From the NCBI GenBank assembly GCA_039802605.1, contig JBDRWW010000013.1:1-31754 (forward strand): a stretch of 31,754 bases of DNA, in the 5' to 3' direction. Positions 1 through 29,898 of the stretch are shown here, piece by piece. Positions within the stretch are counted from its first letter, which is position 1, and each line of letters begins with the position of its first letter. The DNA is from a candidate division WOR-3 bacterium. GTDB lineage: Bacteria > Hydrothermota > Hydrothermia > LBFQ01. The translations under genes were made by a program, and so were the position numbers. Below the pieces are notes generated by a model that was not told the DNA's origin, did not search any database, and worked only from the letters and a program-made list of their open reading frames with translations.

Positions 1-125
1 GTATTTGCCCTACATTCTGTGTGAAGAGCATACTTATACCTTCCTCGTATATCTCCCCAGCCCTTTTGTCGGGCTTTGGGGTTATGCCTTCCAGCGGCAA
101 TGAGGTTATTAATGATTATTGCCAT
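1..125 (-). CDS. 5' end of a probable gene running off the left edge (possible frameshift near nt 110)
   Basis: TAAAAT box (140-135) lies 9 nt before ATG at 125, as for other genes here. The ATG frame reads MAIIINNL...; the adjacent frame reads LITSLPLEGITPKPDKRAGEIYEEGISMLFTQNVGQI with more host-like codons. Confidence 0.35.
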   Translation of the reverse strand, partial: MAIIINNLIAAGRHNPKARQKGWGDIRGRYKYALHTECRAN

Positions 126-172
126 AAGAAAAGCATTTTAATGTTGAAAAGTTTTTTTGTAAAGTGGGCTTA

Positions 173-3100
173 CTACCTCCCCTTTATCTTCCTTTCCGGT
201 GTTAAGAATGTGTATATTACGGGAACCACGAAAAGGGTTGTTATTAAAGAGAAGTTTAACCCTCCAAATATGGCAACACCCAAGCCCGACCAGAATTCCG
301 AACCCTGTTGTTTTATAACAGCAAGGGGTAAAACCGCAAGGGATGTCGTTAAGGTTGTCATAAGTATAGGTCTCAACCTCCTTGTGGCGGATTCTATTAT
401 CGCTTCAAACTTGTTTTTACCCCTCCTTATGAGTATGTTCGCGTAATCAACCATTACAACGGCGTTATTAACCACGACACCGGTTAAGGCTATAAGCCCT
501 ATAAACCCCGTAATTGAAAGGGGTTGTCTGAAAATTAAGAAGCCGAGGGAAGCACCCGCCAAACCAAAGGGAATACTCGTTATAAATATTATTATCCCCT
601 GCCTGAAGCTCTCAAACTGGGCGGATAAGGTTAAATATATGAGTATCAAGCCGATTATTAGTAGAACCCCCAATTGTGAAAAGCTTTCCGCCTGCCTTTG
701 TATTGCCCCTCCAAACTCGTACGAATATCCACCGGGAAGGTTAAAGTTCTTCAAAAACTTATTTATATCGGCGGTTATTTCACCCAAGGGCCTACCAACA
801 ACCTCACCCGATACCTCAACATACCTTTTTCCATTCCACCTGTCTATTCTAATGGGTGAAGCCCCTTCATCAACCTTTACGAAATTCAACAATGGAACCA
901 AACCGTAGGGTGTGTTTATACTTAGGGATAATACCTTATCAAGGTTTTCCTTATCCTCCTCATCCAAGGTTATCAAAACATCAATGTTTTTTCCTCCGGA
1001 TTTAAGGGTAAAGAGGTTTTGACCGGTTAAGACATACCTTAGAAACCCGGCAACTTGGGTTGGTGTAATACCGTAGGAGTAAGCCTTATCCCTATCAATG
1101 CTTAAAACGAATTCCGGTCTCGGATTTCCAAAGGATGTTTGAACATTCTTTAATCCCCTTACGGTTTTCATATAATCCGCCAAAATTGTCGCCAAACTAT
1201 CCAGAACCCTTATATCATCTCCATAAATCCTAACAACCGCACCCCTTGAACCTCCAAAAAGTATTTGCGAACCCTGACTTGTTGCGGATACCTCATACCT
1301 TTCAACGCCGGGAATTTCCTTTACAAGTTTTTCTATCTCATCCGCAACCTCAAAAGTGCTTTTCTTTATATCATCCTTTAATCTGACCACAAAGAACGCG
1401 GTATAAGGCGCTTCTACACTTCCAAAAACCGCCCCAAATCCCGATTCCGTAGGACCCACCCTAAACACCGCTTCCATAACCTCGGGCATTTTATAAACCT
1501 TCTCGGCCACCGGTAAAACCATCTCGTAGGTTTTATCAAGGGATGTACCCCTTGATAGTTCCAAGGTTCCCCTTATCTGTTTTTCATCCGCTTGTGGGAA
1601 GAAATCCGTGGGTATAAACCTCCAAATAGATGCCGTTATTAATAGTATTAAAACAAACACACCCAAAAATACAAGTCTCCTCTTAACGACAAACTTAACC
1701 AATTGATTGTATACCCTTTCCACGGGTTTAAACCATGCGGGTTCCCCTTTTGGTTTTAATATTATCTGGTTTGCCGCCAATGATGGTATAATCGTTAAGG
1801 CCAAAAACAAACTCGTAAGGTACACTATAACGGATATGGTTGCCAATTCTTTAAAAATCACTCCTATAAATCCCGGTATAAAAAACAGGGGTAGCAAAAC
1901 TATGAAGTTTGTTATTACGGAAGCGGTTATAGCACCCCGCACTTCCAAAGTTGCAAACTCGGAAGCCTCCCTTGGGGGTTCTCCCCTTAACCTGTGAAAG
2001 AAAATGTTTTCTATTACAACTATTGAAGCATCAACCACAGAACCTATGGCCAACGCCAATGCCGAAAGGGATATTATGTTTATTGAACTCCCGCTCAGGA
2101 ATAGGTATAAGAAGGCAATGATTAAGGAAGAGGGTATTGTTAAGGCCACGAGGATACTTGAACGAACATCCAAGAGGAAGATGAAGGATACGAGAATAAC
2201 TATTATACCCGCTATGAACAGAGAATTCCTTAAATTCGCAATTGCATTCCTTATAAAACTTGAACCGTCGTTCTGTATAAAGAACTTTACGGGGTATTTC
2301 CTCTCAATTTCTTCCAACTTCTTTTTAACATTATCGGCAACTTCAACAACATTCGCATCCGCCTGCTTTTGGACGGCAAACAAAACCGCATCTTTACCCT
2401 TATGGTTTATGTAATTAACCCTCTTGGCGTATCCATCAACAACATCGGCAACCTCGTAAAGTTTAATGGGCCTTCCGTTTATAAATCCCACAACGGTTTC
2501 CTTTAAATCTTCCACAGATCTTATACTTGATGGGATTTTTAGTATCATCTCCTTATCGGAATACTTAACCTCACCCGCCGGGATTTCTAAGCCTTGGGAT
2601 TTTAGCATGCTTGCTATACCATCAAAGGTTAAACCATAATTCTCCAACTTATCCCTATGCACATATACGTTTATCTGCCTCTTCTTTCCCCCTCCCCATA
2701 TCTGAACCAAACCTACACCCTTAACCCTCTGCAATTCATCTTTAAGGTAATCCTCCGCCCATTCCCGTATGGGGAAATCCTCCTCGGTTGAATTTACCGT
2801 TGCTATTATTATGGGGAATTGTTGTATATCAAACTTCAAAATCAAGGGATCGCTTGCGTCTTCTGGAAGCAGGGATGAGGCGAAACTCAATCTGTCCTTA
2901 ACATCCAAAGCCGCCTTATCAATATCCGTCCCGTATTTAAATGTTATCGTAACAACGCCTAACCCGTTTTGGCTGGTTGAACTTATGCGATCAATATCTT
3001 CAAGGATGGAGAGGTTTTCCTCTAAAACTTCCACTATATTCTTTTCCACATCTTCCGGAGACGCCCCGGGATATTGTACCACAACGGAAACCGATGGCAA

Positions 3101-3217
3101 TGTGAATTTCGGTAAGAAATCCAACGGCAGATTTATAAGACCAAAAATCCCCCCTATTATAAGTATTAAATACACAACAAGGGCAAAGGTAGGTCTTCTT
3201 ACAAAGAACCTTGTCAT
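173..3217 (-). CDS. RND efflux transporter permease subunit (AcrB/AcrD/AcrF family)
   Basis: 1014 aa. N-terminal FFVRRP, YPGASPEDVE, GSVVDASIVVIENI (TM4), GVVVNNAVVMVD (TM10) and RLRPILMT (TM11); two periplasmic halves. Confidence 0.96.
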   Translation of the reverse strand: MTRFFVRRPTFALVVYLILIIGGIFGLINLPLDFLPKFTLPSVSVVVQYPGASPEDVEKNIVEVLEENLSILEDIDRISSTSQNGLGVVTITFKYGTDIDKAALDVKDRLSFASSLLPEDASDPLILKFDIQQFPIIIATVNSTEEDFPIREWAEDYLKDELQRVKGVGLVQIWGGGKKRQINVYVHRDKLENYGLTFDGIASMLKSQGLEIPAGEVKYSDKEMILKIPSSIRSVEDLKETVVGFINGRPIKLYEVADVVDGYAKRVNYINHKGKDAVLFAVQKQADANVVEVADNVKKKLEEIERKYPVKFFIQNDGSSFIRNAIANLRNSLFIAGIIVILVSFIFLLDVRSSILVALTIPSSLIIAFLYLFLSGSSINIISLSALALAIGSVVDASIVVIENIFFHRLRGEPPREASEFATLEVRGAITASVITNFIVLLPLFFIPGFIGVIFKELATISVIVYLTSLFLALTIIPSLAANQIILKPKGEPAWFKPVERVYNQLVKFVVKRRLVFLGVFVLILLITASIWRFIPTDFFPQADEKQIRGTLELSRGTSLDKTYEMVLPVAEKVYKMPEVMEAVFRVGPTESGFGAVFGSVEAPYTAFFVVRLKDDIKKSTFEVADEIEKLVKEIPGVERYEVSATSQGSQILFGGSRGAVVRIYGDDIRVLDSLATILADYMKTVRGLKNVQTSFGNPRPEFVLSIDRDKAYSYGITPTQVAGFLRYVLTGQNLFTLKSGGKNIDVLITLDEEDKENLDKVLSLSINTPYGLVPLLNFVKVDEGASPIRIDRWNGKRYVEVSGEVVGRPLGEITADINKFLKNFNLPGGYSYEFGGAIQRQAESFSQLGVLLIIGLILIYLTLSAQFESFRQGIIIFITSIPFGLAGASLGFLIFRQPLSITGFIGLIALTGVVVNNAVVMVDYANILIRRGKNKFEAIIESATRRLRPILMTTLTTSLAVLPLAVIKQQGSEFWSGLGVAIFGGLNFSLITTLFVVPVIYTFLTPERKIKGR

Positions 3218-4065
3218 CTTTCAAACCTCACTATCTTAACCTTATCCCCATCCTTTACAACATTTGCCCCGAAGACCACTACGGTATCCCCAAACTTTAA
3301 TCCCCTTATAACCTCATATCCTTCCGATGTGGTTATTCCCAATTCCACCGGAACCCTTTTCGCAATATTCCCGCTAACCACAAAAACATACCCTTTATTA
3401 TCCCCAACGAAGGCGCTAACGGGTAAAACTATCGTTGAATCCGATCTCTTTACCTCTACTTCAACCAGAACCGATTGTCCGGGGATGAAATTCCCGTTTA
3501 TTTCCCCTTCAACCTTTAATGTCCTTGTTCTTGTGTCAAGGGCTGGGGAGACCCTTACAATCCTCCCCCTTTTACCCTCAACCCATATTTTCCCGCCAAC
3601 CCTTATATCACTTGCGAAAACCTCGGGAACATCAAATAATACCGAAATCTTATCCTTACCGACTATTCTAAAAAGCGGCGTTTGAGGTGAAACCGGTGCC
3701 CCTATATCCCTCAACAAAACCTGAACATATCCGCTTGTCGGCGCCTCAACGGTTAAAGGTTGAACATCTATACCCGGCGCAGATCTATCAATCAGCGCCA
3801 ATATTTGACCCTTTCTTACATATTGCCCTTCGGATACATTTACCCTTAAAAGTTTTCCCGGCATATCCGCAAAAACATTTATATCTGGATAACCCTTAAT
3901 TATACCAGAAACGGTTATGGTTTTTGATATACTTTCGGGCCTGGCGATTTTTACCACTACGGTTTTTTCAACATCCTTACCGTTTTCGTTTTTAACATTT
4001 TCCGTTTTCCCTCTTCCCGCGCAGGATATTATAAGTATAAGCAATAACGCGAACGGTTTTCGCAT
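3214..4065 (-). CDS. RND periplasmic adaptor (membrane fusion protein), predicted lipoprotein
   Basis: Lipoyl-like VSEGQYVRKGQILA...APTSG, ISPALDTRTRT-type motif (VSPALDTRTRT), GLKFGDTVVV. Start moved to ATG 4065 (MRKPFALLLILIISC lipobox), 8 nt after TAGAAT. ATGA overlap with the permease. Confidence 0.92.
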   Translation of the reverse strand: MRKPFALLLILIISCAGRGKTENVKNENGKDVEKTVVVKIARPESISKTITVSGIIKGYPDINVFADMPGKLLRVNVSEGQYVRKGQILALIDRSAPGIDVQPLTVEAPTSGYVQVLLRDIGAPVSPQTPLFRIVGKDKISVLFDVPEVFASDIRVGGKIWVEGKRGRIVRVSPALDTRTRTLKVEGEINGNFIPGQSVLVEVEVKRSDSTIVLPVSAFVGDNKGYVFVVSGNIAKRVPVELGITTSEGYEVIRGLKFGDTVVVFGANVVKDGDKVKIVRFER

Positions 4066-4086
4066 AATCGGATATTCTAAGGGTGA

Positions 4087-4104
4087 TTTGAACGGTCGTT
4101 CAAA
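4087..4104. promoter_or_regulatory. Palindromic operator TTTGAACG-GT-CGTTCAAA overlapping the -35 of the RND operon promoter
   Basis: Perfect 8-bp inverted repeat. Minus-strand TTGAAC (4103-4098) lies 18 nt from TAGAAT (4079-4074). Confidence 0.6.
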
Positions 4105-4166
4105 AACCAAATCCAACCCCTTTTTCCTTATGCCCGGATACATATTGGAACCGTTGAGTGCAAGGG

Positions 4167-4172
4167 TATAAT
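4167..4172 (+). promoter_or_regulatory. -10 box TATAAT of the leaderless-type promoter of the M32 carboxypeptidase (representative of 15 such sites)
   Basis: TATAAT-atccggtt-ATG; no SD. Confidence 0.7.
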
Positions 4173-4180
4173 ATCCGGTT

Positions 4181-5671
4181 ATGACACCGAAAGAGGCTTA
4201 TAGCGAACTCCTTGAAATATCAAGAAGGGTTGCGATATTTTCGTCTTTTGGTTCCCTTCTCGGGTGGGATCAGAGGACATATATGCCTAAGAAAGCGGCC
4301 AATTACAGGGCATTACAGTACGCCTCGCTTATGGAATACATTTACGAAATCCTGACATCGGATAGGTTTGGGAAACTGATAGAAATTGCGGAAAAAGGGG
4401 AATACGACCTGAGGGGTAAAATGAACATTTACTGGTGGAGGAGGGGATACGATAGATTAACAAAAATACCGAAAAGCCTTTATGTTGAAGAGGCAAGGGT
4501 TTCTTCCGAAAGTGAGAGCGTATGGGTTGAGGCTAAGAAGAAGGGAGACTTTAACCTTGTGAAGCCATACCTTGAAAGGCTTATAAACATTAAAAAGGAG
4601 ATGGCGGAACATATGGGTTATGAGGGGGAAAGGTATAACGCCCTCTTGGATTCTTATGAGCCCGAATTAAGGGCGGAATATGTAAGCGAGATATTCACAA
4701 ACTTAAAAGGGGAAACCCTAAGGCTTTTAAATGTGGTTATAAACTCGGGTAAAAAACCCAAAGGGGAAATACTAAAAGGGCATTTCCCAAAGGATAAACA
4801 AAGGGAGTTCTGCCTGTTTTTGTTAAAAAGCATAGGTTATGACTTTGATGCCGGTAGGCTGGACGAGACGGTACATCCGTTCGCAACGATGATAACACCA
4901 AACGATGTAAGGATAACCACAAAATACGAAGAGGACTTTATATCACCTTCAATTTTTGGAACCCTTCACGAAATGGGACACGGTTTATACGACATGGGAT
5001 TACCAGAGGATATGTGGGCGGAACCCGTGGGTAGCGCGGTATCACTTGGGGTACACGAATCGCAGTCAAGGTTTTGGGAAAACATAATAGGTAGAAGCGA
5101 GGCTTTTTGGAAGCGGTTTTATAAAGACCTCTCAGATCACTTCCCGAAGTTTAAAGATATTCCCCTTGAAGATTTCCTATTTGCCGTAAACGAAATTAAG
5201 CCATCAACTATAAGGATCGAGGCCGACGAACTGACCTATAACCTTCATATAATCCTAAGGTTTGAAATTGAAAGGGAGGTTATAAACGATAAAGTTTCCG
5301 TAGATGACTTGCCCGACCTTTGGAACGAAAAGTTTAAATCTATGTTTGGTTTCTACCCACCTAATATATCCGAAGGGGTTTTGCAGGATATACATTGGTA
5401 TGGAGGCTCGTTTGGATATTTCCCAACTTATACCCTCGGAAATATCATATCCGCCCAGATCTTTGCCAAAATGAAGGAAGATTTGCCGGTTTATGAACTC
5501 GTTGAGAGGGGAGAATTCCAACCGATAATAAACTGGCTGAAAGAAAAAATACACTCCAAGGGTTCCCTTTACAAACCCTCCGAACTGGTTAAACGCGCAA
5601 CCGGCGAAGATATAAACCCGAAATATTTGATAAACTATTTGGAGGACAAGGTTAAGAGGTTTTACGGGTAA
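4181..5671 (+). CDS. Carboxypeptidase M32 (carboxypeptidase Taq family)
   Basis: 496 aa; WDQRTYMP, HPF, HEMGH (HEXXH), HESQS, IRIEADE, QDIHW, YFPTY motifs. Confidence 0.96.
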   Translation: MTPKEAYSELLEISRRVAIFSSFGSLLGWDQRTYMPKKAANYRALQYASLMEYIYEILTSDRFGKLIEIAEKGEYDLRGKMNIYWWRRGYDRLTKIPKSLYVEEARVSSESESVWVEAKKKGDFNLVKPYLERLINIKKEMAEHMGYEGERYNALLDSYEPELRAEYVSEIFTNLKGETLRLLNVVINSGKKPKGEILKGHFPKDKQREFCLFLLKSIGYDFDAGRLDETVHPFATMITPNDVRITTKYEEDFISPSIFGTLHEMGHGLYDMGLPEDMWAEPVGSAVSLGVHESQSRFWENIIGRSEAFWKRFYKDLSDHFPKFKDIPLEDFLFAVNEIKPSTIRIEADELTYNLHIILRFEIEREVINDKVSVDDLPDLWNEKFKSMFGFYPPNISEGVLQDIHWYGGSFGYFPTYTLGNIISAQIFAKMKEDLPVYELVERGEFQPIINWLKEKIHSKGSLYKPSELVKRATGEDINPKYLINYLEDKVKRFYG

Positions 5672-5720
5672 AAATTATCCTGACTTTTTTGGTCAATTTT
5701 CAACCTTAAAATACCCGCCT

Positions 5721-6803
5721 ATGGTGAAACTTGACGAAATAAGAGCGGAAGCAAAGAGGCTATACGAACAACTGCCCCTTCCCGAAAGCAAGTACACAAA
5801 CCTAAAATGGTGGAAGGACGAAGATTACCTAATTGAGGGGGAATTAAATGTTGATATATCCGGACCCGAAGGTGTAAAGTGGGAATTCTTAGAATCCGCA
5901 AATATTGGGGGCTTGGTGCCTATAAACGCGAACAAGTTCATGGCATTACATTATGCTAACATAGACAGGGTTTTAAGGGTGGAGTTCCCCGAAAACTTCA
6001 GGGCGGAAACACCGGTGTATATAAAGGTGAACGTTAAGGGTAGGGGGCATTTGCACGTATTGGTTGAGGGAAAAAGGAACGGTAAGGGCGAAATAGTTAT
6101 TTTTTCAAGCGGTAAGGGTTTATACACGGAGGTTATAGAAACATATGTTGATCAGGAGGCCGATATAAAGATAGGGGCCCTCGAGAGTTTGGATAAGGAT
6201 TCCGTTGTTTTCTCTTCAAGGGCGGTTAAAACGCTAAAATTTAGCAAATCCCAGTTGGTTGGCGCTTGGTTTGGCGGAAAATTCGTTATGTCAAAACACC
6301 TTATAAAACCCTTGGGAGAGGAATCCCAAATAGAGGATGTTCAGGTTTTACTCGGTGAGGATTCCCAGCACTTTGATATATCCACACACCTGGATTTTTC
6401 TGCCCCTTATACCAAAGGTGAATCTATGATTAGGGCGGTTTTGAAGGATACGGCAAGGGCTGTAATGTACGGTTTAATAGACATAGAAAGGGAAGCGCAG
6501 TTTGCGGATGCATACCTTTCAGAACACGCGTTGCTCTTGAATTCCGGGGCAAGGGCCGATTCAATACCGGGTCTTGAAATAATGGCGAATCAGGTTAGGG
6601 CAACTCATGGCGCAACCGTTGGTCCAATTGACCCCGAACAGATGTTCTACCTTATGAGTAGGGGGTTGGATGAAATAGAAGCCAAAAAACTAATAGTTAT
6701 GGGCTTCTTTGAGCCGGCCACATCGAGGATGGGTATAGAAGAGGTTAGGGATGTTATATATAACTATGTTGAAGAAGTCCTTTCGGAGAAACAGCCCGTT
6801 TAG
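5721..6803 (+). CDS. sufD: Fe-S cluster assembly protein, SufD/SufBD family
   Basis: Beta-helix core and C-terminal PGLEIMANQVRATHGATVGPID...FYLMSRGL...LIVMGF. Confidence 0.85.
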   Translation: MVKLDEIRAEAKRLYEQLPLPESKYTNLKWWKDEDYLIEGELNVDISGPEGVKWEFLESANIGGLVPINANKFMALHYANIDRVLRVEFPENFRAETPVYIKVNVKGRGHLHVLVEGKRNGKGEIVIFSSGKGLYTEVIETYVDQEADIKIGALESLDKDSVVFSSRAVKTLKFSKSQLVGAWFGGKFVMSKHLIKPLGEESQIEDVQVLLGEDSQHFDISTHLDFSAPYTKGESMIRAVLKDTARAVMYGLIDIEREAQFADAYLSEHALLLNSGARADSIPGLEIMANQVRATHGATVGPIDPEQMFYLMSRGLDEIEAKKLIVMGFFEPATSRMGIEEVRDVIYNYVEEVLSEKQPV

Positions 6804-7289
6804 TTAAGGTATTTTTTGGCTACATCCAAAACCTTCTCGGCTTTTTGTAATGCCCGCGGGACATAAGGAATCTCCATAAAAGCCCATAAAAATTGATTGG
6901 GGTATAGGGGCATCTTCGTTTAACCACAACCTGATATAGGTAAATGTAATTAAGCGATAAGACTGCTCCACGATCTCAATCCCTTCAACAAAGTCCCAAG
7001 GTATCAGATACCCATCCGGTTTTTTGAAAAGATTCATTATGGTTAGTGGACTAACCCAAATCCCCTGATGACCTACGGCTAAAATGGGCCTTTTACCGCG
7101 AAATGCCATTAAAAAGAAAAAAACCGACATGGGGACGAAAAACAAGATAATGATCCAACCTACAAGGGGTTCATCCTCCGATGCCATAAGCCAACCGACA
7201 TATGAAAATATTACGCTTATAACCCCGAACACCAAGAGGCGCAAAACACTCGGATAAACATACAAATCCATTTCCGGTAAATCTTTCAT
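6800..7289 (-). CDS. STM3941-like small membrane protein (2 TM + PH-like domain), probable frameshift near 6880
   Basis: Two N-terminal TM helices, then ILAVGHQGIWV...IPWDFVEGIE. The ORF tail is atypical; the alternative frame 6877-6800 reads MEIPYVPRALQKAEKVLDVAKKYLN*. Confidence 0.55.
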
Positions 7290-7357
7290 AATGTCGAAAT
7301 TTTAACCGTGAGAAATACAGTCAATTGGGATTTTTAACACCCTTATACTACCCATCC

Positions 7358-8485
7358 ATGGCCCACGCGTATACTCCCGGATTAAAGGTATCGGAAAAAA
7401 CCATTGTTAGAAAGGAAAGGAGGCTGCCCCTTTGGGGTGATGTTTTGGTTAATAAAGGGGAATTTGTAAAGGCGGAAGATGTAGTGGCCAAGGCATTGCT
7501 TCCAGGACCGGTTTATCCAAAAAACTTGGCCGGAGAAATGGGAATATCACCGGCCGATATTCCAAAGGTTTTATTGGTGGAAAAGGGTGAAAGTATAAAA
7601 AAGGGACAGGTAATAGCAAGGGCAAAGGTGTTTTTCGGTTTGTTTAAGGTTGAAGCCACATCACCGATAGATGGTTATCTTGAAGACTATTCCGAAATAA
7701 CCGGACAAATAATTTTAAGGGAAAACCCCATACCAATCGAGGTTAAGGCTTACCTTGACGGTATAGTTGAGGAGGTTATACCAAATGAGGGTGTTGTTGT
7801 AAGAACCGTAGCCGCTATGGTTCAGGGAATATTCGGGGTAGGGGGTGAGCAGATGGGGGTATTAAGGGTTGCCGTAAATTCCCCGGATGAGGTTTTAACA
7901 CCGGAAAAGGTAAATGAGGATTTGAGGGGTTGTATAGTGGTGGGTGGTAAAACGGCGGATATAGAAACCCTTAGGAAATGCGCTGAAGTGGGGATAAAAA
8001 CCCTTGTCCTCGGTTCAATAGACGATTCAACCCTTGAAGAATATGTTGGTCGTCAGATAGGCGTTGCCATTACCGGAAACGAAGATGTACCTTTTACCCT
8101 AATTATAACCGAGGGTTTCGGTGAATTGCCTATGGCGGAAAGGGCTTTTAATCTTTTTAAGAAGTTTGAGGGGTTGAAGTGTTCTTCAAACGGGGCCACA
8201 CAGATAAGGGCGGGTGTTCAAAGACCCGAGGTAATAATTTTCCGTAAAGATGTAGATCCAACGGAGGAGGTTGTTGATAAAACGGAGAGCGGGCATTTAG
8301 ATATAGGCACAACGGTTAGAATAATAAGGGACCCATACTTTGGGGAAATTGGTATGGTTGTGGAACTTCCAAACGAAGCGGTGAAAATAGAAACGGAATC
8401 AACCGTTAGGGTTTTAAAGGTTAGACTTTTGGACGGAAGGGAAGTCGTGGTTCCGAGGGCAAATGTTGAACTTATAGAAACATAA
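7358..8485 (+). CDS. Conserved hypothetical protein with barrel-sandwich-hybrid (lipoyl-like) motifs and a C-terminal KOW-like domain
   Basis: VLVNKGEFVKAEDVVA and LLVEKGESIKKGQVIA...SPIDG motifs; C-terminal GTTVRIIRDPYFGEIGMVVE. Start at ATG 7358, 8 nt after TATACT. Confidence 0.75.
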   Translation: MAHAYTPGLKVSEKTIVRKERRLPLWGDVLVNKGEFVKAEDVVAKALLPGPVYPKNLAGEMGISPADIPKVLLVEKGESIKKGQVIARAKVFFGLFKVEATSPIDGYLEDYSEITGQIILRENPIPIEVKAYLDGIVEEVIPNEGVVVRTVAAMVQGIFGVGGEQMGVLRVAVNSPDEVLTPEKVNEDLRGCIVVGGKTADIETLRKCAEVGIKTLVLGSIDDSTLEEYVGRQIGVAITGNEDVPFTLIITEGFGELPMAERAFNLFKKFEGLKCSSNGATQIRAGVQRPEVIIFRKDVDPTEEVVDKTESGHLDIGTTVRIIRDPYFGEIGMVVELPNEAVKIETESTVRVLKVRLLDGREVVVPRANVELIET

Positions 8486-8486
8486 A

Positions 8487-8870
8487 ATGGAAGTGCTCCT
8501 GATATTGCATAACTTTATAAGGTGGGTGGTGTTTTTAACGGGTTTATGGGCGGTTTTTGGTGTATTTAAAAACAACCCCAAGGGTTTGAGGTTTTACACC
8601 ATATCCTTTGATGTTCAGGCACTTCTGGGAATAATTCTCTGGATAAATCTCATCCTATCTTATGGTTCTTCCCAAGGGTCTATGAAGGAATTCTATTTTA
8701 GGTTTTTTGTTATGGAACACCCCGTAATAATGTTGCTTTCCCTAATATCCGCACATTTGTCCGTTGTTAAAGCAAAATCGGAAGGTAATTCTTGGAAGGT
8801 TTTGGCCATATTATCGTATATTTTGTTAATTGTCGGAATACCTTGGTGGAGGCCTTTAATAAGAATCTAA
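8487..8870 (+). CDS. Small 4-TM membrane protein (cytochrome b-like hypothetical family)
   Basis: LHNFIRW, FFVMEHP, SAH and GIPWWRP motifs; His residues in TM helices. Coupled to the upstream gene (TAA-A-ATG). Confidence 0.65.
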   Translation: MEVLLILHNFIRWVVFLTGLWAVFGVFKNNPKGLRFYTISFDVQALLGIILWINLILSYGSSQGSMKEFYFRFFVMEHPVIMLLSLISAHLSVVKAKSEGNSWKVLAILSYILLIVGIPWWRPLIRI

Positions 8871-10234: not shown

Positions 10235-10246
10235 TTTCTAACCCGA

Positions 10247-10834: not shown

Positions 10835-10903
10835 AAGTGGGAATTATACCGCTGAAATGTTTGTTTATATGCTCTACCTTAACCCTCTTATAATCCACAC
10901 CTT

Positions 10904-19966: not shown

Positions 19967-19969
19967 ATT

Positions 19970-21028: not shown

Positions 21029-21051
21029 AGCGGGTATTGTAAGGGGGAAAG

Positions 21052-22848
21052 TTATCTTAAAATAACCCTCTTTGTCTTTTTGCCCTCTTTTATAAAATAA
21101 ACCCCCCTGCCCTTTATATTAACACGCCTACCCAAAATATCGTAAATTATCCTTTTATCCCCCTTTAATTCGGCGCCCTTATCCCCAACTTTCAGTTCCG
21201 CTTCCGAGATTTCAAAACCAATCTTTATGCTGTCAAGCCTAAACCTCCTCGTACCGGTAAAATTCGTGAAGGCAACAATTAATACCTGTGCGCTGTCTAT
21301 GTCGTAAAGTGATGTATCGTAAAATGGGATATTTGGGATAACCTCAACGAAATCCCCCCAACCACCCTTATAACCCCTTATATAAACCTTTAACGAGCAA
21401 CAATCGGAAAAATTCCCGAAAACCTTAACAACCCTAGCATTGGCATAATTGGTACCTAAGCCCTTTGAGGGTAGGAGGAAGTAAAAGGCATTACTCCTAT
21501 CATAAACATTGCCGAATATCTGAACGGATAGGTTTCTACTCGCCTTTACCGAGTAAAGGTTTGTTTTAAGGGTTGTATCAAAATAAAAAGGGGGTCCCAA
21601 ATTCCAATAAACGCTTGAACTGTCCAACTCCTTCCTTGAAGATAGTATATCAGGCCACCCATCCCCATCAAAATCCATTACAAATACCCCGTAATTGCTG
21701 CTTGAAGGTATCACAAGCTTTCTACTTTCGGAAAAATTACCGTTATAGTTAAAGTATATCGTTATCCTGCCGTTGTTCCAATCGGATAAAGGTGCCTTTT
21801 CCCCAAATATAACATCAACCCATCCATCCCTATTTATGTCATAAGCCTGAACATTCCTACAATCTTGCAAGGATAAAAACTCGTGTTTGTTGTAAGGTGA
21901 ATATCCTACACCGCTTCCCCACATAACCACGCCATACCCGTATGCGCAGGATATTATGTCAAGGTACCCGTCCCGGTTTAAATCCGCAACCGTTGCGCCA
22001 TAACTACCAGACGAATCAAGTCCGGTTGGTTTAAACCATATATCGGTATATACACTTTGGTAAAAGTTTCCGAAAACATTCCAATATACCTTTGGGGGGT
22101 TTGTGGGTGGGAACCAATCCCTATAATAAAGACTACCAATATACGCATCAAGGAAGCCATCGTAATCCAAATCCGCAAAGAATACGGGATGTGTTCCCGC
22201 ACCGTACAAACAGGGTGTTGTATCCCATTGGTTATAACCGGAAGGCGAACCGAAAAATATCTTTGAACACTCCCTACCCTGAGGGGTTAACTGCGATGAA
22301 TCCCTCCATACACCTACGAGTATATCGGGATAGCCGTCCATATTTACATCCGCGACATATGGGGTTTCAACGGATCCAGCCTTCAAATAAACCATTCTAC
22401 TCGTATCAAAGGGATAATCGTAATAAACCCTTATCCCGGTTTTGCTTCTCGGATCCATAACGCTTAAAACATAGTCAATAATACCGTTTCCGTTCAAATC
22501 CCCAACCCAAACAGCATCGTGGCACATGCTATCGCCATCCGCACGATACTTCCAATATACCGGTGAAAACCTCCTGCCACCCGAGTTTATAAAAACATGC
22601 TGATATGGATAAGCATACCACCACTCGTTGTTCGTAAGTATTATATCCATAAGGCCGTCACCGTTTAAATCCAAGTCTTGACCCAAAATCCTTATGCCGT
22701 TTGACCAATACATATGCAAACCCAAATTCCAAGTCCTAACCTTATTATCCGACCAAAATAGCGTATCGCTACCGTAATAGTAATACTCCCTACCTCTTAA
22801 AAAATCCACCCCTTTATGCGCAATAGTATAGCAGAAAATAAGCTGCAT
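21052..22848 (-). CDS. FG-GAP/VCBS-repeat beta-propeller protein with a short T9SS-type-A-like C-terminal tail
   Basis: Seven DxN/DxDGxxD motifs (DLNGDGLMD, DLNGNGIID, DVNMDGYPD, DLDYDGFLD, DLNRDGYLD, DINRDGWVD, DFDGDGWPD); C-terminus IYDILGRRV...GVYFIK...KRVILR. Confidence 0.85.
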   Translation of the reverse strand: MQLIFCYTIAHKGVDFLRGREYYYYGSDTLFWSDNKVRTWNLGLHMYWSNGIRILGQDLDLNGDGLMDIILTNNEWWYAYPYQHVFINSGGRRFSPVYWKYRADGDSMCHDAVWVGDLNGNGIIDYVLSVMDPRSKTGIRVYYDYPFDTSRMVYLKAGSVETPYVADVNMDGYPDILVGVWRDSSQLTPQGRECSKIFFGSPSGYNQWDTTPCLYGAGTHPVFFADLDYDGFLDAYIGSLYYRDWFPPTNPPKVYWNVFGNFYQSVYTDIWFKPTGLDSSGSYGATVADLNRDGYLDIISCAYGYGVVMWGSGVGYSPYNKHEFLSLQDCRNVQAYDINRDGWVDVIFGEKAPLSDWNNGRITIYFNYNGNFSESRKLVIPSSSNYGVFVMDFDGDGWPDILSSRKELDSSSVYWNLGPPFYFDTTLKTNLYSVKASRNLSVQIFGNVYDRSNAFYFLLPSKGLGTNYANARVVKVFGNFSDCCSLKVYIRGYKGGWGDFVEVIPNIPFYDTSLYDIDSAQVLIVAFTNFTGTRRFRLDSIKIGFEISEAELKVGDKGAELKGDKRIIYDILGRRVNIKGRGVYFIKEGKKTKRVILR

Positions 22849-22916
22849 AAGTGGAAATTATATAGATGCCTCTGGTTTTCCCACACGAAAACTTTTTCTA
22901 TCGTATAATAACCGCT

Positions 22917-24413
22917 ATGCGTAAATTTGTGGTAATACTCCTGCCTACGGTGGTATTCGCCCAAGAGAGCGAGGAGATATACCGCGAGGAGCAACCGACA
23001 CGGGTACAGGTTAGTTCCGAAGTGTTCGGCGCCACCACCCTAATAGGCACCCCTATAAACGATTTGAGCGGACTTTCAGCCCAAGCAACGGGGGATCTTT
23101 TGAACATTTTAAGGGCCCGGGCGGGTGTATACGTAAGTTTTGCAAACAAATTCACCCTTGCCATAGCGGGCATATATGTCGGGGAAGCGGCGAGTGAAGT
23201 TTCAAGGCTTCCAATTGGTTTATCGGAAGCATATGTTCAGCTGGATACATTCGTATTGCCAATAGGGGGATTGGGGGAACTCAGAATGGGAAGGCAAATT
23301 ATTAACTACGGTATGGGCTTGGCATTTGGGGATTATCACGGTTTTGGTACCAATGCAATAAGGTTTGCATACAGGTTTAGCCCGGCATGGGATTGGTATT
23401 TGCATATATTGTACGCGAAATCAAACGAAGGTGGTGCAAGGCAGGTTGAGTACTTCTGGTATCCCTTTGCGTATTATAATGAATTAACAAATGAACAGGC
23501 CTTTAAATGGATATATACAAAGTACGACCTTGAAACATGGGCTTTGATATTGGGTAAATCAAGGGGTGATAGGGGTATTTATGATTTCTTCGTTTATGGC
23601 GCCGCAATGACGGAGGACAGGGGTTTGGGCGGAGGTTTTAACCCCTATTGGGTGGGAGGCTACATAAATATCGGACCCATTGGGAATTTCTTTATGGACG
23701 GTGAATTGGGTTATATGACGGGAACATGGGGTTCAAAACAAGAGGTATGTTATGACTTTTGCGACCAGATTTATAACATAACCGGTGGGGAAAGACAACA
23801 AATAAACGCGTACGCGATAGCAATAAGGGCATCTTATGACTTTACGGATCAGATAACGGGCGGACTGTCCTTCTTCACATTCAGCGGCGATAACCCGAAC
23901 ACCAGGGGTATGTACGAATCTTGGCTGTCCCCTCTTCCAAAATCCGGTATAAGCGCTTACAGTCCTTGGACACACTGGACGGGTATGGGTGAGGTGTTTA
24001 TTTGGAATTACAGGCCCGACAATTGGAGGAGCATATACTTCTTCAATCCGACGAATTTCGTCGTGGCAAACCTGAATTTCATATACAAGGCCTTCCCAAT
24101 ACAGCAATCGTTGGTTATAAGGGCGGATGGGTTTGCGTTTGCCGAAGCGGCATCACCAAGTGGGGTTGATTCCTACCTAGGTAGTGAGTTTGACTTGGCC
24201 TTAAAGTTTTCATACGCGGATATAGCGGATGTGGGTATAACTTTCGGGTATTTTGTGCCGAGCACGAGGTTTCAAAATACCGGTTGGTCAAGACCTTCTA
24301 GGTTGGACCTTGTTCAGGAGGGTTTGGTACCGGCGGACTACCAAGTCTTGAAAATTACCGGAAATTCCTATGTGGTCAGGCTTTGGATATACAGGTCCAT
24401 AAACTTCTTCTGA
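22917..24413 (+). CDS. Outer-membrane beta-barrel protein (alginate export/AlgE-like)
   Basis: Signal MRKFVVILLPTVVFA-Q; EAYVQL, GRQ.I.YG.G, SGDNP, LGSEFDL; aromatic amphipathic strands; C-terminal Phe. Start 7 nt after TATAAT. Confidence 0.75.
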   Translation: MRKFVVILLPTVVFAQESEEIYREEQPTRVQVSSEVFGATTLIGTPINDLSGLSAQATGDLLNILRARAGVYVSFANKFTLAIAGIYVGEAASEVSRLPIGLSEAYVQLDTFVLPIGGLGELRMGRQIINYGMGLAFGDYHGFGTNAIRFAYRFSPAWDWYLHILYAKSNEGGARQVEYFWYPFAYYNELTNEQAFKWIYTKYDLETWALILGKSRGDRGIYDFFVYGAAMTEDRGLGGGFNPYWVGGYINIGPIGNFFMDGELGYMTGTWGSKQEVCYDFCDQIYNITGGERQQINAYAIAIRASYDFTDQITGGLSFFTFSGDNPNTRGMYESWLSPLPKSGISAYSPWTHWTGMGEVFIWNYRPDNWRSIYFFNPTNFVVANLNFIYKAFPIQQSLVIRADGFAFAEAASPSGVDSYLGSEFDLALKFSYADIADVGITFGYFVPSTRFQNTGWSRPSRLDLVQEGLVPADYQVLKITGNSYVVRLWIYRSINFF

Positions 24414-25850: not shown

Positions 25851-25856
25851 GTTTGA

Positions 25857-26414
25857 TTAGCCCCTTCTTAAAGCAACAAGCGTCATAAGAGCGGACATAA
25901 CGATAAGGGTTGTATATCCGTAGTTTTGATTAAAAGAAAGTAGCAGATCTCCAAAAAATGTAAGCGTTATAATGATGGAACCGGGAATCCACCTCTTACC
26001 CACCTCACTGCCCCAAAACGCAAGCAAGTTAAAGTACACACCTAATGCCGAAATTAAATCTGCTATAATAACAATCGCAAAAGAACCAAAACCGCCTATA
26101 TAAAACCAAATTGCAACCACAGGAACTAACACGATAAGGCTTAATGCAAACCATGCTATCCATTTTATTCCAAAATCCCTTAATGAGGGTCTTATAAAAG
26201 GGATGGCGTACTGTAATACCCCGATTGCCACAATTAGGCGGGAAATTAATAATAGCCAATCCTTTTGGAAAATCCCATACAATCCCTGAAAGATAAAAAT
26301 AACAAATATGGATAAGTAAAGCCTACCCCTGATACTTTGATAACCCAATTCCCGAACCTTTAAAAGCTGTGCAAGGGCTGTTAAGAATGATATCAAAATG
26401 AATGCCGTTTTCAT
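25857..26414 (-). CDS. Hypothetical integral membrane protein (about 7 TM)
   Basis: Almost entirely hydrophobic. Start moved to MKTAF (26414), 8 nt after TACAAT. Confidence 0.7.
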   Translation of the reverse strand: MKTAFILISFLTALAQLLKVRELGYQSIRGRLYLSIFVIFIFQGLYGIFQKDWLLLISRLIVAIGVLQYAIPFIRPSLRDFGIKWIAWFALSLIVLVPVVAIWFYIGGFGSFAIVIIADLISALGVYFNLLAFWGSEVGKRWIPGSIIITLTFFGDLLLSFNQNYGYTTLIVMSALMTLVALRRG

Positions 26415-26450
26415 AAACGACAATTGTATACGGGCGAAAAAGCACATACA

Positions 26451-28412
26451 TCATTCAAATACTATTTCAACCCTTCTATTCTTAGCCCTACCCTCCTCCG
26501 TATCGTTTGGAGCTATGGGTTTCTTTGAACCGTAGCCAATAACATTTATCCTTTTTGGGTCTATACCGTTCCTTATCAGATAGTCCGCAACGGCCTTTGC
26601 CCTCCTTTCCGAAAGTTTTTGGTTATACTCTTCCGTACCAACAATATCCGTATGACCCGCAACGGTTATCCTTATATTGGCATGTTCCTTTAAAAACTTT
26701 ACAAGCCTGTTCAGTTCAAGTTTTGATTCCGGTTTTAATTCCGCCGAATTAAAGTCAAAGAATATGTTGTTTAAAACAAACTTCGCCCCCTTTTCAATTG
26801 GTTGTAGGGGTATTTCCAAGTATTTCTCCTGATAGTTTCTTAAACCCTTTAAATCAAAGTTAAAGGATTGGAAGGCGTGCAATGTATCCAAGGGTTCTGC
26901 GGTTAGTCCGTAAAACCTTTCGGATGGCAGAACCACGACGAATTGCCCGTTTTCATCGGTTTCGGATGAGAACCAAATTTTACCCGTTCCCAAATCTTCA
27001 ATTGTTATTTTGGCTTTTAGGGTTTGTTTGGTTTTCGCATCAAAAACCTTGCCCCTAACGAGGTTCACGGGTTCTGGCATTAATTCCTTCTGTTTATCGG
27101 TTAAACTATCCCTATTGGGTATACTCGCCCTGTAAATATGGTATATCTTTACCCCCGTTTTTTCATCAACGGAATCGATTCGTGAAAAATATATCCAATC
27201 AGCACTTGCGGGTATTGAAAAGAATATATCGTCTTCGTGTGTGTTGTAAGGATAACCGAGGTTTTCGGCTTTCGTCCATCGGTTTTCACCGACCATTTTA
27301 CTAACAAAAATATCATACCCTCCGAAACTCGCCCAACCGTTTGATGCAAAGTAAAGGGTTTTCCCGTCGGAATGTATGAACGGTGAAATTTCATTACCGG
27401 GTGTATTAACATTAGGGCCCAAGTTTACCGGCTCGCTCCAACTCCCATCCTCGTTTCTAATACACATCCAAATGTCTAAACCCCCATAACCCCCCGGTCT
27501 GCTTGAAGAAAAGAATAGATATTTCCCATCTGGGGACATTGTGGCTTGGGCATCCCAGTGCCTGCTGTTTGGTGGACTACCGGCGTTTTTAGGTTCTCCC
27601 CAAGATTCCCAACCGTTCCTCCTCTCGGAAAAGAAAATATCCATACTCCCATGACCGTCCCTTATACCCCCCTCCTTCTCCTTGGGTAAAGGTTTGTACT
27701 TTGAGTTATAGGCCAATATTAGGGTTTTATTATCAGCCGATATTCCGCTAACACCTTCGGAAGATGGGGTGTTTAAACCTTTTAAATTTATAGGCTCAGA
27801 CCATTTATCGCCCGTTTTTGTGGTTATCCATATATCCTCCCTACCCTCTCCCCCCTTTCTGGTTGATACGAAAACCATTACCCTACCATCGGCACTTATT
27901 ACGGGTGAATAATCCCCACCCGTTCCATCACTTAGAAGATAATACGACTTTATGGGTTTAACGAGTTCCTTTATCTGCTCAACCTTAACATTTTTAAACC
28001 TTCGCGCGTATATATCCCGTAATACTTGGAAATCCTCAATCTTTTTATAAACATCGGATTTTAGGGGGAAATGTTCGGGGTATTTGTATCCCCCTTCGGA
28101 GAGGTAGGTTTTTAAAAGGCTTATGGCCATATCAAATTCGTAAGCCCTGCCATAGGATAACGCGGCGTTTAATAGGGCTTTTAGCCTAAGGGTGTCGCCA
28201 TAGGCCGCCTTTTTGGAAGCTTTATAGAAGTAAATTGCCGCCGAGTCATACTTTGCCGTGCTGTAATAAACCCATCCCAGTTGGTAATTGTCTTCATAGG
28301 TATCGTTTGTATATTTGCTTTTGAGTTCGGAGAACCTCCTGCTTTTGAAATAGGCGGAATATTTATCGTTTAATGGCGGGAAAAGGTCAATGTATGCGAA
28401 GATTATTACCAT
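26451..28412 (-). CDS. TPR-PD40-carboxypeptidase-regulatory-OmpA domain protein (PorE-like architecture)
   Basis: N-terminal TPR-like helices; PD40 repeats (SPVISADG, MSPDGKYLFFSSSRPGGYGGLDIW, SPFIHSDGKTLYFAS); VRGKVFDAKT; OmpA_C (GHTD...N.KLSERRA.AV...NRRVE). Confidence 0.9.
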   Translation of the reverse strand: MVIIFAYIDLFPPLNDKYSAYFKSRRFSELKSKYTNDTYEDNYQLGWVYYSTAKYDSAAIYFYKASKKAAYGDTLRLKALLNAALSYGRAYEFDMAISLLKTYLSEGGYKYPEHFPLKSDVYKKIEDFQVLRDIYARRFKNVKVEQIKELVKPIKSYYLLSDGTGGDYSPVISADGRVMVFVSTRKGGEGREDIWITTKTGDKWSEPINLKGLNTPSSEGVSGISADNKTLILAYNSKYKPLPKEKEGGIRDGHGSMDIFFSERRNGWESWGEPKNAGSPPNSRHWDAQATMSPDGKYLFFSSSRPGGYGGLDIWMCIRNEDGSWSEPVNLGPNVNTPGNEISPFIHSDGKTLYFASNGWASFGGYDIFVSKMVGENRWTKAENLGYPYNTHEDDIFFSIPASADWIYFSRIDSVDEKTGVKIYHIYRASIPNRDSLTDKQKELMPEPVNLVRGKVFDAKTKQTLKAKITIEDLGTGKIWFSSETDENGQFVVVLPSERFYGLTAEPLDTLHAFQSFNFDLKGLRNYQEKYLEIPLQPIEKGAKFVLNNIFFDFNSAELKPESKLELNRLVKFLKEHANIRITVAGHTDIVGTEEYNQKLSERRAKAVADYLIRNGIDPKRINVIGYGSKKPIAPNDTEEGRAKNRRVEIVFE

Positions 28413-29047
28413 TTTAAGGCTCTTAGAATGCTTAAAAATACACCAAGCCCGTCTTCGCTTCCCAAAATCTCATCGCTTGCCCTCTCCGGATGGGGCATAG
28501 TTCCGAAAATCCTGCCATCCTCGGATATTATAGCCGCTATATCATCCTCCGAACCGTTTGGATTTTCTTCATACCTGAACACCACCTTAAAATTTTTCCC
28601 TTTTCCCTTTATGTATCTTCCGTCGGAATGTGCTATTGGAATTTTAATCCTTTGGCCTTTTCTAAACATGTTTGTAAATGGTGTATCGTTATCCTCAACT
28701 ATGAGGGTTTGCCATTCGCATATAAACTTCCCGTTTGTGTTTTTGGTTAGGGCTCCGGGTAAAAGTTTGCTTTCCGTTAAAATTTGAAAGCCGTTGCATA
28801 TTCCGAGTATATAGCCTTTAAAATCCCATAAAGCCTTAACAACGGGGGAAAAGGATGCCAAGGCCCCCGGTCTTAAATAATCCCCATAAGAGAAACCACC
28901 GGGTAATACTATGAGTTGGTAGTCTTTTATATCGGTTTCCTTATACCAAATATATTTGGCATCAAAACCCGCCTTTTCAAGCGCCCAATATGTATCCCTA
29001 TCGCAATTACTACCCGGGAATACTACAACGCCCGCCTTGGGTTTCAT
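28406..29047 (-). CDS. purQ: Phosphoribosylformylglycinamidine synthase subunit PurQ
   Basis: FPGSNCDRD, PGGFSYGDYLR.G, GICNGFQIL, NPNGS, MPHPER. Confidence 0.97.
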   Translation of the reverse strand: MKPKAGVVVFPGSNCDRDTYWALEKAGFDAKYIWYKETDIKDYQLIVLPGGFSYGDYLRPGALASFSPVVKALWDFKGYILGICNGFQILTESKLLPGALTKNTNGKFICEWQTLIVEDNDTPFTNMFRKGQRIKIPIAHSDGRYIKGKGKNFKVVFRYEENPNGSEDDIAAIISEDGRIFGTMPHPERASDEILGSEDGLGVFLSILRALKW

Positions 29048-29868
29048 ACGCTCATAGGTGGGGCTTTGGGGGCATCGGGTGGTGGCGTGGCATTCCAGTC
29101 AATTTTATGAAAGCCCGCCTTCTTTTTCTTCTTAGCCAACCCTAAGGAGTATAAAGCCAGTTCCCTCTTTAACAACTGTATTGCCAAGGCGGGGTCAACA
29201 CCCTTAGGACATGCGTCGGAGCAGGCGCCCGCAAAATGGCACCTAAAAGCACCCTCAACCAATGAAGAAACAACCGCCCTATCAACAATATAACCCTCAT
29301 CCCTACTGTCTGCTATATACCTATAAGCGGCGGTTAAAGCCTGAGGCCCCCAAAAGTCCTCGTTTCCGGATACTACCGGACAGGCGGCAACACATGCACC
29401 GCACTTTATACAATAGGAAAACTGCAAGTAATCCTCAACATCCTGAGGGGTTTGGAGGTACTCGCCGGTTGGGTTTTCAAACTCTTCTGGGTCGGAATAT
29501 CTAATTATGTATGGTTTTACCGATTTATGATTTTCAAAAAACCTTCTCAGGTCCGGAACGAGGTCTTTTATAACCATATAGTTGTTCATAGGTTCAACGG
29601 TTATGGTGTCAGAATTCAGTTTTAATATCTGGGTTTGGCATGCAAGCATCATTTTTCCGTTGATCTTCATAGCACAGGAACCGCACACTCCCATCCTACA
29701 AGACGCCCTAAAAACCAGAGAACCATCAAGGTTTTCCTTTATGTAATATAAACCCTCTAAAACCGTCATCCCTTTAAACACGGGAACGGTATATTCCTTA
29801 AATTCCGCATTGTGGCTTTTCGGGGAATACCTGAGAACCTTAAAGGTTATGTTTTTTGTTTCCTTCAT
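29044..29868 (-). CDS. sdhB: Succinate dehydrogenase/fumarate reductase iron-sulfur subunit
   Basis: CRMGVCGSC..LAC [2Fe-2S], CIKCGACVAACP [4Fe-4S], CHFAGACSDACP [3Fe-4S]. Confidence 0.93.
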   Translation of the reverse strand: MKETKNITFKVLRYSPKSHNAEFKEYTVPVFKGMTVLEGLYYIKENLDGSLVFRASCRMGVCGSCAMKINGKMMLACQTQILKLNSDTITVEPMNNYMVIKDLVPDLRRFFENHKSVKPYIIRYSDPEEFENPTGEYLQTPQDVEDYLQFSYCIKCGACVAACPVVSGNEDFWGPQALTAAYRYIADSRDEGYIVDRAVVSSLVEGAFRCHFAGACSDACPKGVDPALAIQLLKRELALYSLGLAKKKKKAGFHKIDWNATPPPDAPKAPPMSV

Positions 29869-29898
29869 GAAGTTGGTATTATATACTGGAAGTTGATT

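Follow-up and report, generated by a model that had tools for sequence, protein, structure and literature searches.

In a 31,754-bp stretch of DNA (hereafter the window), ~42% GC and by its sequence from a hot-spring-type candidate division WOR-3 bacterium close to Candidatus Caldipriscus, 17 genes begin a few nucleotides downstream of a -10 box that is part of a longer and highly regular module. The motif, its spacing from the start codon, its restriction to genes preceded by a gap, and its conservation in relatives are directly observed. We propose that these modules are probably -35-independent promoters that abut the start codons and give mRNA leaders of 0–5 nt, the pattern of Deinococcus and of the genomes in group C of the GeneMarkS-2 classification. 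Leaderless-type expression as such is already known; here it occurs in a new lineage, WOR-3, with a promoter signature of its own.

A -10 box at a near-constant distance from the starts of leading genes

We placed 33 open reading frames (ORFs) in the window, which carries no tRNA gene and only 1,139 nt of non-ORF DNA within positions 1–31247. Genes were classed by their upstream neighbour: 21 were considered leading (divergent, or with a gap of at least 20 nt upstream) and 12 internal (offset from the gene before them between -22 and +12 nt). An earlier annotation made from the letters alone (the sequence-only reading) had listed 17 starts with TAnAAT or TATACT 7–12 nt upstream and no Shine-Dalgarno (SD) sequence. 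Start, box and gap proved exact at all 17, with gaps of 7 nt (four sites), 8 nt (seven), 9 nt (four), 10 nt (one) and 12 nt (one), the mode being 8. The gaps are C/T-rich and in none of the 17 is there a GGAG, GAGG or AGGA core, as had been claimed.

The modules, and the one leadered gene discussed with them, are as follows (module coordinates, strand, gene, hexamer, gap and start).
123–146 (-): edge gene; TAAAAT 135–140, preceded by C-N5; 9-nt gap; ATG 125
4063–4085 (-): membrane-fusion lipoprotein gene (Pfam HlyD_D23); TAGAAT 4074–4079; 8-nt gap; ATG 4065 (re-called from 4143)
4161–4183 (+): M32 carboxypeptidase gene; TATAAT 4167–4172; 8-nt gap; ATG 4181
5701–5723 (+): SufBD-type gene; TAAAAT 5707–5712; 8-nt gap; ATG 5721; top matrix score in the window
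7287–7310 (-): gene of a 161-aa membrane protein; TAAAAT 7299–7304; 9-nt gap; ATG 7289
7338–7360 (+): gene of a 375-aa protein; TATACT 7344–7349; 8-nt gap; ATG 7358 (re-called from TTG 7325)
10832–10854 (-): L25/Ctc, Pth and sigma-factor operon; TATAAT 10843–10848; 8-nt gap; ATG 10834
10883–10906 (+): PfkB-family kinase gene; TATAAT 10889–10894; 9-nt gap; ATG 10904
13584–13605 (-): ispH; TAGAAT 13594–13599; 7-nt gap; ATG 13586
13609–13630 (+): TPR gene, broken in the window; TAAAAT 13615–13620; 7-nt gap; TTG 13628
17742–17766 (-): gene of a 241-aa lipoprotein-like product; TATAAT 17755–17760; 10-nt gap; ATG 17744
18855–18881 (-): FIST-domain gene; TATAAT 18870–18875; 12-nt gap (outlier); ATG 18857
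21026–21047 (-): M42 peptidase gene; TACAAT 21036–21041; 7-nt gap; ATG 21028
22846–22868 (-): FG-GAP repeat gene; TATAAT 22857–22862; 8-nt gap; ATG 22848
22898–22919 (+): gene of a 498-aa secreted or outer-membrane-like protein; TATAAT 22904–22909; 7-nt gap; ATG 22917 (re-called from 22866)
26412–26434 (-): gene of a 185-aa membrane protein; TACAAT 26423–26428; 8-nt gap; putative ATG 26414 (re-called from 26447)
29866–29889 (-): gene string of an Fe-S subunit (Fer2_3), a purQ-like gene and an OmpA/PD40 gene; TATAAT 29878–29883; 9-nt gap; ATG 29868
31054–31089 (-): cupin gene, leadered; C-N5-TATAAT, hexamer 31078–31083; GGAGG 31064–31068; ATG 31056

Positional enrichment over the AT-rich background is present at the scale of the window. 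Counting both strands of the whole window, TAnAAT or TATACT is present at 163 places; 20 of these hexamers lie no more than 15 nt upstream of a placed start, and 17 of those are at a gap of 7–12 nt. At this distance the motif precedes 17 of the 21 leading genes and none of the 12 internal ones (Fisher p = 5e-6). Shuffling of the 40 nt upstream of each start (20,000 rounds) left 0.51 genes with the motif on average and never more than 5, against the 17 observed. A profile blind to the placed starts, which asked only for the motif, a gap and an ATG opening at least 100 codons, gave 3, 7, 3 and 2 cases at gaps of 7, 8, 9 and 10 nt and near zero elsewhere. If one leaves aside the edge gene and the four genes whose starts were re-called, 12 of 16 leading genes with their longest-ORF starts still had the motif, and the result is therefore independent of the re-calling. 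Two internal starts do have a hexamer close by, 17019 (TAGAAT at gap 6, lacking the upstream C described below) and 19966 (at gap 0). The looser TANNNT is common in 42% GC DNA, and the window profile made with it was noisy.

Four leading genes are without the signature: 31056, 30309, and the fragments of broken genes 14731 and 30608. ORF 14731 (14731–15132) is the 3' piece of the TPR gene, which in the window consists of two ORFs (13628–14620 and 14731–15132) and in a close relative (locus L001, below) of one intact 556-aa ORF (8290–9960); the window copy is probably a pseudogene or a sequencing or assembly error, to judge from this comparison. ORF 30608 is a 72-aa DUF488 fragment that covers only profile positions 54–114 of 131 (broken gene 30390–30692), and the short ORF that precedes it, starting 3 nt past the cupin stop, appears to be the detached N-terminal piece of the same gene. 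Counting the 19 credible leading genes, 17 carry the signature (95% confidence interval 0.67–0.99), in this one window.

Anatomy of the module

Alignment of the 17 sites on the hexamer shows that the signal is longer than the -10 box first noted. Within the hexamer T1, A2, A4 and T6 are present in 17/17 and A5 in 16/17, with position 3 free, which agrees with the sigma-70 -10 consensus. Six nucleotides upstream of the hexamer's first T stands a C in all 17 sites, compared with 26 of 146 background hexamers (p = 9e-12). Less strict preferences upstream are A at -5 (12/17), C at -3 (11/17) and T at -7 to -10. After the hexamer come C at the third (12/17) and fourth (11/17) nucleotides and a purine at the fifth (14/17), followed by pyrimidines up to the start codon. 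The consensus can be written tttC-A-n-C-n-t-TAnAAT-w-y-C-C-R-y-y-t-ATG, and the start codon follows the invariant C by ~22–24 nt.

The sites lack a -35 element, as the information content of the 17 sites does not exceed 0.43 bit at any position from -22 to -45. No site has the TGn of an extended -10 promoter (0/17). A generic two-hexamer sigma-70 scan of positions 1–20000 was not enriched (57 hits, compared with 47.5 +/- 5.4 in shuffles) and recovered only 3 of the 12 claimed sites in that range. The site of 4181, with TTGGAA and a 16-nt spacer, is one of only three claimed sites with a -35-like hexamer. Intrinsic-terminator-like sites were not enriched in 1–20000 either (22, compared with 27.6 +/- 5.4).

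By contrast with the generic scan, a 22-nt matrix built without the start codon finds 15 of the claimed sites as the top 15 matches on both strands of the window. In leave-one-out scoring these 15 reach at least 10.1 bits, while 125 (a putative gene, seen as a 41-codon fragment running off the window edge) scores 2.7 and 26414 scores 3.1. The next matrix matches are the cupin promoter (12.8) and then an antisense site (12.5).

That antisense site, CcacctTAAAAT at 28582–28593 (+), is module-like and lies inside the purQ-like gene 28406–29047 (-). It may represent either an antisense promoter or a match by chance.

Conservation of the module in relatives

The IspH protein (12657–13586, minus strand) shows 100% identity to an NCBI protein of a candidate division WOR-3 bacterium. 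Relatives were collected by one search of genome contigs with this IspH as the query, which gave 80 loci in all, 75 of them from other phyla and used as controls. The closest, L001, is from an uncultured bacterium (IspH identity 94%) and shows extensive synteny with the window; L022 and L027 are from Candidatus Caldipriscus sp. (84% and 83%), and L002 and L010 are more distant (63% and 61%). In syntenic parts of L001 the modules are nearly identical, which is little informative. More telling are the places where the surrounding DNA has changed. The L001 module of 10834 is identical and the DNA further upstream different; that of 10904 is kept beside a 5-kb insertion, with an unrelated upstream flank; and the L001 orthologue of 18857, with wholly different upstream DNA, again has C-N5-TATAAT, at a 9-nt gap. 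The Caldipriscus ispH orthologues have C-N5-TAAAAT, 7 nt and ATG in otherwise diverged sequence.

We further selected 10 sites in L001, L022 and L027 by hexamer and gap only, 8 of them non-orthologous to sites in the window. All 10 have the C at -6, and 9 have a purine at the fifth nucleotide after the hexamer; their gaps are 6 nt (2), 7 (2), 8 (5) and 9 (1). For the window and the relatives together, the purine of the CC-purine element is found at 23 of 27 sites (p = 1.6e-4). One of the modules, that of L022 14328, falls within the 3' end of the gene before it. A TTG occupies the leaderless position, 6–7 nt past the hexamer, in three different genes (window 13628, L022 12966 and L022 20323); two of the three have no in-frame ATG until far downstream, and the TPR gene's TTG and module are both kept in L001.

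Two control groups have start-proximal hexamers of another kind. In the Armatimonadota loci the hexamer is a leaderless-like TAGAAT preceded directly by G (at -1), most often 6 nt from the start; in those of Solirubrobacterales it is TANNNT, with C as the base at -1 and 6–10 nt between box and start codon. The C at -6 is absent from both; it is specific to the lineage of the window.

The Armatimonadota loci L047, L048, L049, L052, L054, L057–L059 and L075 have g-TAGAAT or g-TAAAAT, exactly 6 nt and then GTG or ATG, with 26 matches at gap 6 in 151 kb, compared with 1–8 at most gaps and 14 at gap 9. This signature is conserved at orthologous genes across species.

Relative to the window L001 has two insertions, 12706–17443 and 1826–4554. 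The first, between the L25 and PfkB genes, is a cluster of three genes with SD-led starts (GGAGG before 14052 and 15568). The second measures ~2.7 kb, and its gene for a 644-aa protein (2620) has a leaderless-type module.

Corrected gene starts

The sequence-only reading had used the motif to correct four over-extended ORF starts. Homologues confirm the correction at 7358: of the best 30 representatives, 26 have their first residue opposite residue 12 of the long ORF, and the other four have 3–13 extra residues or are fusions. With 4065 and 22917 as starts, signal-peptide-like sequences come to lie at the N-termini: the 4065 product begins MRKPFALLLILIISC, by inspection a lipoprotein-type signal peptide, and the 22917 product begins MRKFVVILLPTVVFAQ, signal-peptide-like by inspection. 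The correction to 26414 stays putative. In nine other products the Pfam domain begins, at profile position 1–4, within the first 10 residues, which fits the starts used here.

Several database IspH homologues from relatives are annotated with 317–323 aa, 8–14 residues more than the motif-supported 309 aa (the L022 ispH lies at 9977–10930). Public annotations of the lineage thus probably over-extend such starts, as far as this comparison of lengths goes, and gene callers that assume an SD will misplace starts in this lineage.

Shine-Dalgarno sequences are still present

It had also been suggested that the lineage translates almost wholly without SD pairing. This is not supported, since strong GGAGG(T/G) sequences stand 6–9 nt before starts in the window and in its relatives. 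We read these individually, because a positional profile of GGAGG was swamped by coding copies (84 in the window). The SD-led starts are 31056 in the window, 14052 and 15568 in L001, and 160, ~3166, 4751, 10927 and 17345 in L022. The last of these belongs to infC (16842–17345, minus strand; TIGR00168, E = 2.5e-52), whose TTG start lies 7 nt past GGAGGTG; the infC of Caldipriscus looks like the classical leadered, non-AUG arrangement, in a lineage whose leading genes are mostly of leaderless type. From such GGAGG(T/G)-led starts, SD-dependent initiation is evidently in use. The recurrent GGAGGT(G) is complementary to the canonical 3' tail of 16S rRNA, which argues for an intact anti-SD.

The cupin gene 31056 combines the two signals. 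Its module is followed by actcggaaaGGAGGtattaaa-ATG, a 21-nt stretch with GGAGG 7 nt before the ATG, and the layout reads as a conventional promoter, leader and SD.

Among the 12 internal genes an SD core is found before two, 3217 (GTGAGG) and 15898 (GAGG, distant). The other ten have none, and their overlaps and short offsets (-22 to +12) suggest that they may be translated by coupling. A crude count of SD 4-mers over all ORFs of the window gave 16%, compared with 6% at a decoy spacing; over the 80 loci such counts were noisy (Gammaproteobacteria 28%, decoy 8%) and serve as a rough control only.

How frequent the arrangement is

The sequence-only reading had put leaderless-type starts at near 100%. 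The 17 of 19 credible leading genes come from one window, and L022 looks more mixed: by manual reading its leading genes comprise ~6 of leaderless type, 3 that are SD-led and 3 that are ambiguous. A near-universal occurrence is hence not established.

Published frequencies give a scale. In the survey of PMC3160421, D. radiodurans had 46.1% leaderless genes, the highest value reported there. According to the group descriptions in PMC6028130, 167 of 262 genes with mapped transcription starts are leaderless in D. deserti, and genomes of group C, which have a Pribnow box ~10 nt before the first genes of operons, are predicted to have 25–50% leaderless operons. In the promoter account of PMC12340547, a -10 motif 6–7 bp before ORFs acts as a promoter in D. 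radiodurans, where it concerns about one-third of ORFs, as it does ~30% of ORFs in Deinococcus-Thermus. Counted over all genes, the window (17/33) is not above the 46.1% of D. radiodurans (p = 0.33). Counted over leading genes, 17/19 is nominally above 0.637 (p = 0.013) and 17/21 is not (p = 0.074).

A proposed mechanism and its alternatives

In our proposal each site would be a compact promoter that works without a -35 element, is of the housekeeping sigma-70 type and adjoins the start codon. RNA polymerase would start 7–9 nt past the hexamer, at the A of the ATG or a few bases before it; we infer this position from the hexamer-to-ATG distance and from the pyrimidine run, after which the A of the ATG is the first pyrimidine-purine step. 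C-rich discriminators are known to shift transcription starts downstream in E. coli. The mRNA would then have a 5' untranslated region (UTR) of 0–5 nt without an SD, and would be translated by the leaderless route, with the start codon at or near the 5' end. Internal genes, which have no module at offsets of -22 to +12 nt, would presumably be translated by coupling, sometimes aided by an SD, and a minority of genes would combine the same promoter with an ordinary leader carrying GGAGG.

Several lines of evidence point to a promoter rather than to a ribosome-binding signal. The motif stands before genes preceded by a gap and is absent before internal genes, and the C at -6 lies upstream of any possible transcript. 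At 31056 the module stands 5' of a GGAGG leader, which indicates that it works independently of the start codon. Divergent pairs share only 41 (ispH and the TPR gene), 68 (7289 and 7358), 68, 69 and 115 nt, and co-directional gaps of 23–24 nt hold the module alone: that of 17744 fills a 24-nt gap beginning right after the upstream stop codon, and that of 21028 takes up the 23 nt behind the stop of the FG-GAP gene. Intergenic regions so short could not house a leader together with a promoter further upstream, and a 5' UTR of at most ~5 nt cannot hold an SD. The view already taken in the sequence-only reading, of a -10 promoter element that leaves a 5' UTR of a few nucleotides at most, is thus supported both by the distribution of the motif and by its conservation.

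Other observations weigh against the proposal. The modal gap of 8 nt is 1–2 nt longer than the 6–7 bp of D. radiodurans and the Armatimonadota mode of 6, so that a 5' end exactly at the AUG is not assured. The purine preceded by CC, 5 nt past the hexamer in 14 of 17 sites in the window and 9 of 10 in the relatives, could mark an alternative start that gives leaders of 3–5 nt; the CC-purine element could be a contact of RNA polymerase or such an early start. A TTG start is used at 13628 and at two of the relatives' sites, and work in E. coli and mycobacteria has found TTG to be unusual on leaderless mRNAs. The first 36 nt of 16 module mRNAs were not significantly less structured than 166 gene-body windows (mean -3.44 vs -4.37 kcal/mol; p = 0.066). 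Sites 125 and 26414 are weak, and the transcription start sites are throughout positions that we infer.

It is conceivable that the motif acts not in transcription but in the mRNA, as a non-SD translation signal on leadered transcripts of the FCB group B kind, with transcription starting further upstream. WOR-3 proteins encoded here appear to have features associated with the FCB group, and the motif consists mostly of A and T and keeps a set spacing to the start codon. The group descriptions in PMC6028130 assign 89.9% of FCB-group genomes to group B. The same descriptions place the group B motif before first and internal genes alike, whereas here it precedes none of the 12 internal genes. Moreover, the conserved bases are those of a -10 hexamer and of a C 6 nt upstream of it, at the cupin gene 21 nt separate the module from the start codon, with an SD after the module, and intergenic regions of 23–41 nt could not accommodate an upstream promoter outside coding DNA. 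We therefore consider this explanation very unlikely. It is also quite unlikely that the lineage has given up SD:anti-SD pairing, the anti-SD being lost or unused. An SD is missing from all 17 module genes, a GAGG core is within reach of only 2 of the 12 internal genes, and the crude SD 4-mer count is 16% vs 6% at the decoy spacing. Set against this are the clean GGAGG(T/G) starts of the window, L001 and L022, infC included, and the GGAGGTG extension, which fits the canonical 16S tail.

Chance or artefact, that is, AT-rich intergenic DNA combined with starts picked to fit the motif, would have been a natural concern, as four starts had been re-called to fit it and the loose TANNNT is common. 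However, the strict motif is found in 12 of 16 untouched longest-ORF leading genes, the shuffles never exceeded 5 compared with 17, the invariant C at -6 was outside the selection criterion, the start at 7358 is confirmed by the N-termini of homologues, and the module is kept in relatives. With the start-blind profile added to these, we regard the explanation as refuted, its probability being practically nil. An archaeal-type leaderless promoter was also rejected, as its TATA box lies ~26 nt upstream in the description given in PMC6028130, vs 7–12 nt here.

Beyond the proposal of -35-independent promoters that abut start codons, a wider version can be put forward, tentatively and as rather doubtful. 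In it the 22–24-nt module (invariant C, 5 nt, TAnAAT, a C-rich spacer of 7–9 nt, start codon) would be the dominant expression unit genome-wide, lacking a -35 element and recognised through a contact at -18/-17 undescribed in other bacteria. It would serve >80% of transcription units, giving the highest leaderless fraction among bacteria and using TTG as a leaderless start codon, with the SD confined to a small number of genes that are regulated or were acquired (infC, the cupin gene, inserted clusters).

Comparison with known systems

The arrangement resembles that described for Deinococcus-Thermus in the promoter account of PMC12340547 (Zhong et al. 2025), where a -10-like hexamer stands a fixed few nucleotides before the start without an SD, a large share of genes is concerned, SD-led genes coexist, and over-extended annotations are exposed. 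It differs from the Deinococcus pattern given there in the full TAnAAT with nearly invariant A4 and A5 (instead of TANNNT/TACACT), in the modal gap of 8 instead of 6–7 bp, in the invariant C 6 nt upstream and the CC-purine, and in belonging to the phylum WOR-3. With group C as described in PMC6028130 (Mycobacterium tuberculosis and other Actinobacteria) it shares a Pribnow box before first genes and, as it seems, another signal for internal or leadered genes, which would call for a dual start model; unlike the 25–50% leaderless operons of that group, 17 of 19–21 leading genes are concerned here, in one window.

With group B of the Bacteroidota and the FCB group the window shares little use of the SD and an A/T-rich signal near the start, and WOR-3 and the FCB group possibly belong to a related superphylum. 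Extended -10 (TGn) and other -35-independent sigma-70 promoters are known from E. coli and Firmicutes. Here too, conserved bases directly before the hexamer seem to take the place of a -35 element, but they are C (-6), A (-5) and C (-3) and not TGn. The group B motif, by the description in PMC6028130, lies in the mRNA, whereas here the motif precedes no internal gene and has the anatomy of a promoter.

We found no published description of leaderless expression in WOR-3, and two WOR-3 genome papers are silent on leaderless expression, promoters, SD sequences and ribosome binding. Six of the seven GeneMarkS-2 supplementary files contain no WOR-3, Caldipriscus, Hydrothermae, Armatimonadetes or Chthonomonas entries. 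The results extend the mode of a -10 box next to the ORF, documented mainly in Deinococcus-Thermus and Actinobacteria, to the WOR-3 phylum, a neighbour of the FCB group, in which a different non-SD mechanism prevails. They do not overturn any view of translation initiation: leaderless expression was known before, and the lineage retains the SD pathway. They do provide a promoter model with sharp features (invariant C, no -35 element, C-rich spacer), and a WOR-3 isolate (strain sy37; PMC12285271) and hot-spring metatranscriptomes (Conch and Octopus Spring, Yellowstone, with Caldipriscus among the organisms; PMC11696919) exist for testing it.

Other features of the window

The operon led by 10834, which holds the L25/Ctc and peptidyl-tRNA hydrolase genes, also encodes a sigma-70-family factor (8856–9695, minus strand; 279 aa) with regions 2, 3 and 4. 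It falls below every specific NCBIfam cut-off, the best match being RpoS (111 bits vs a cut-off of 378.7), and is not obviously the housekeeping sigma factor.

A CRISPR array at 31248–31744 reaches the end of the window. It has 8 repeats matching Rfam CRISPR-DR2 (39.4 bits each), and degenerate repeat-like copies lie at ~31100–31247, between the array and the cupin promoter; the window contains no cas genes. The FG-GAP repeat protein (21052–22848, minus strand) ends in a short basic/hydrophobic C-terminal tail, which is reminiscent of the type IX secretion sorting domains of FCB-group bacteria.

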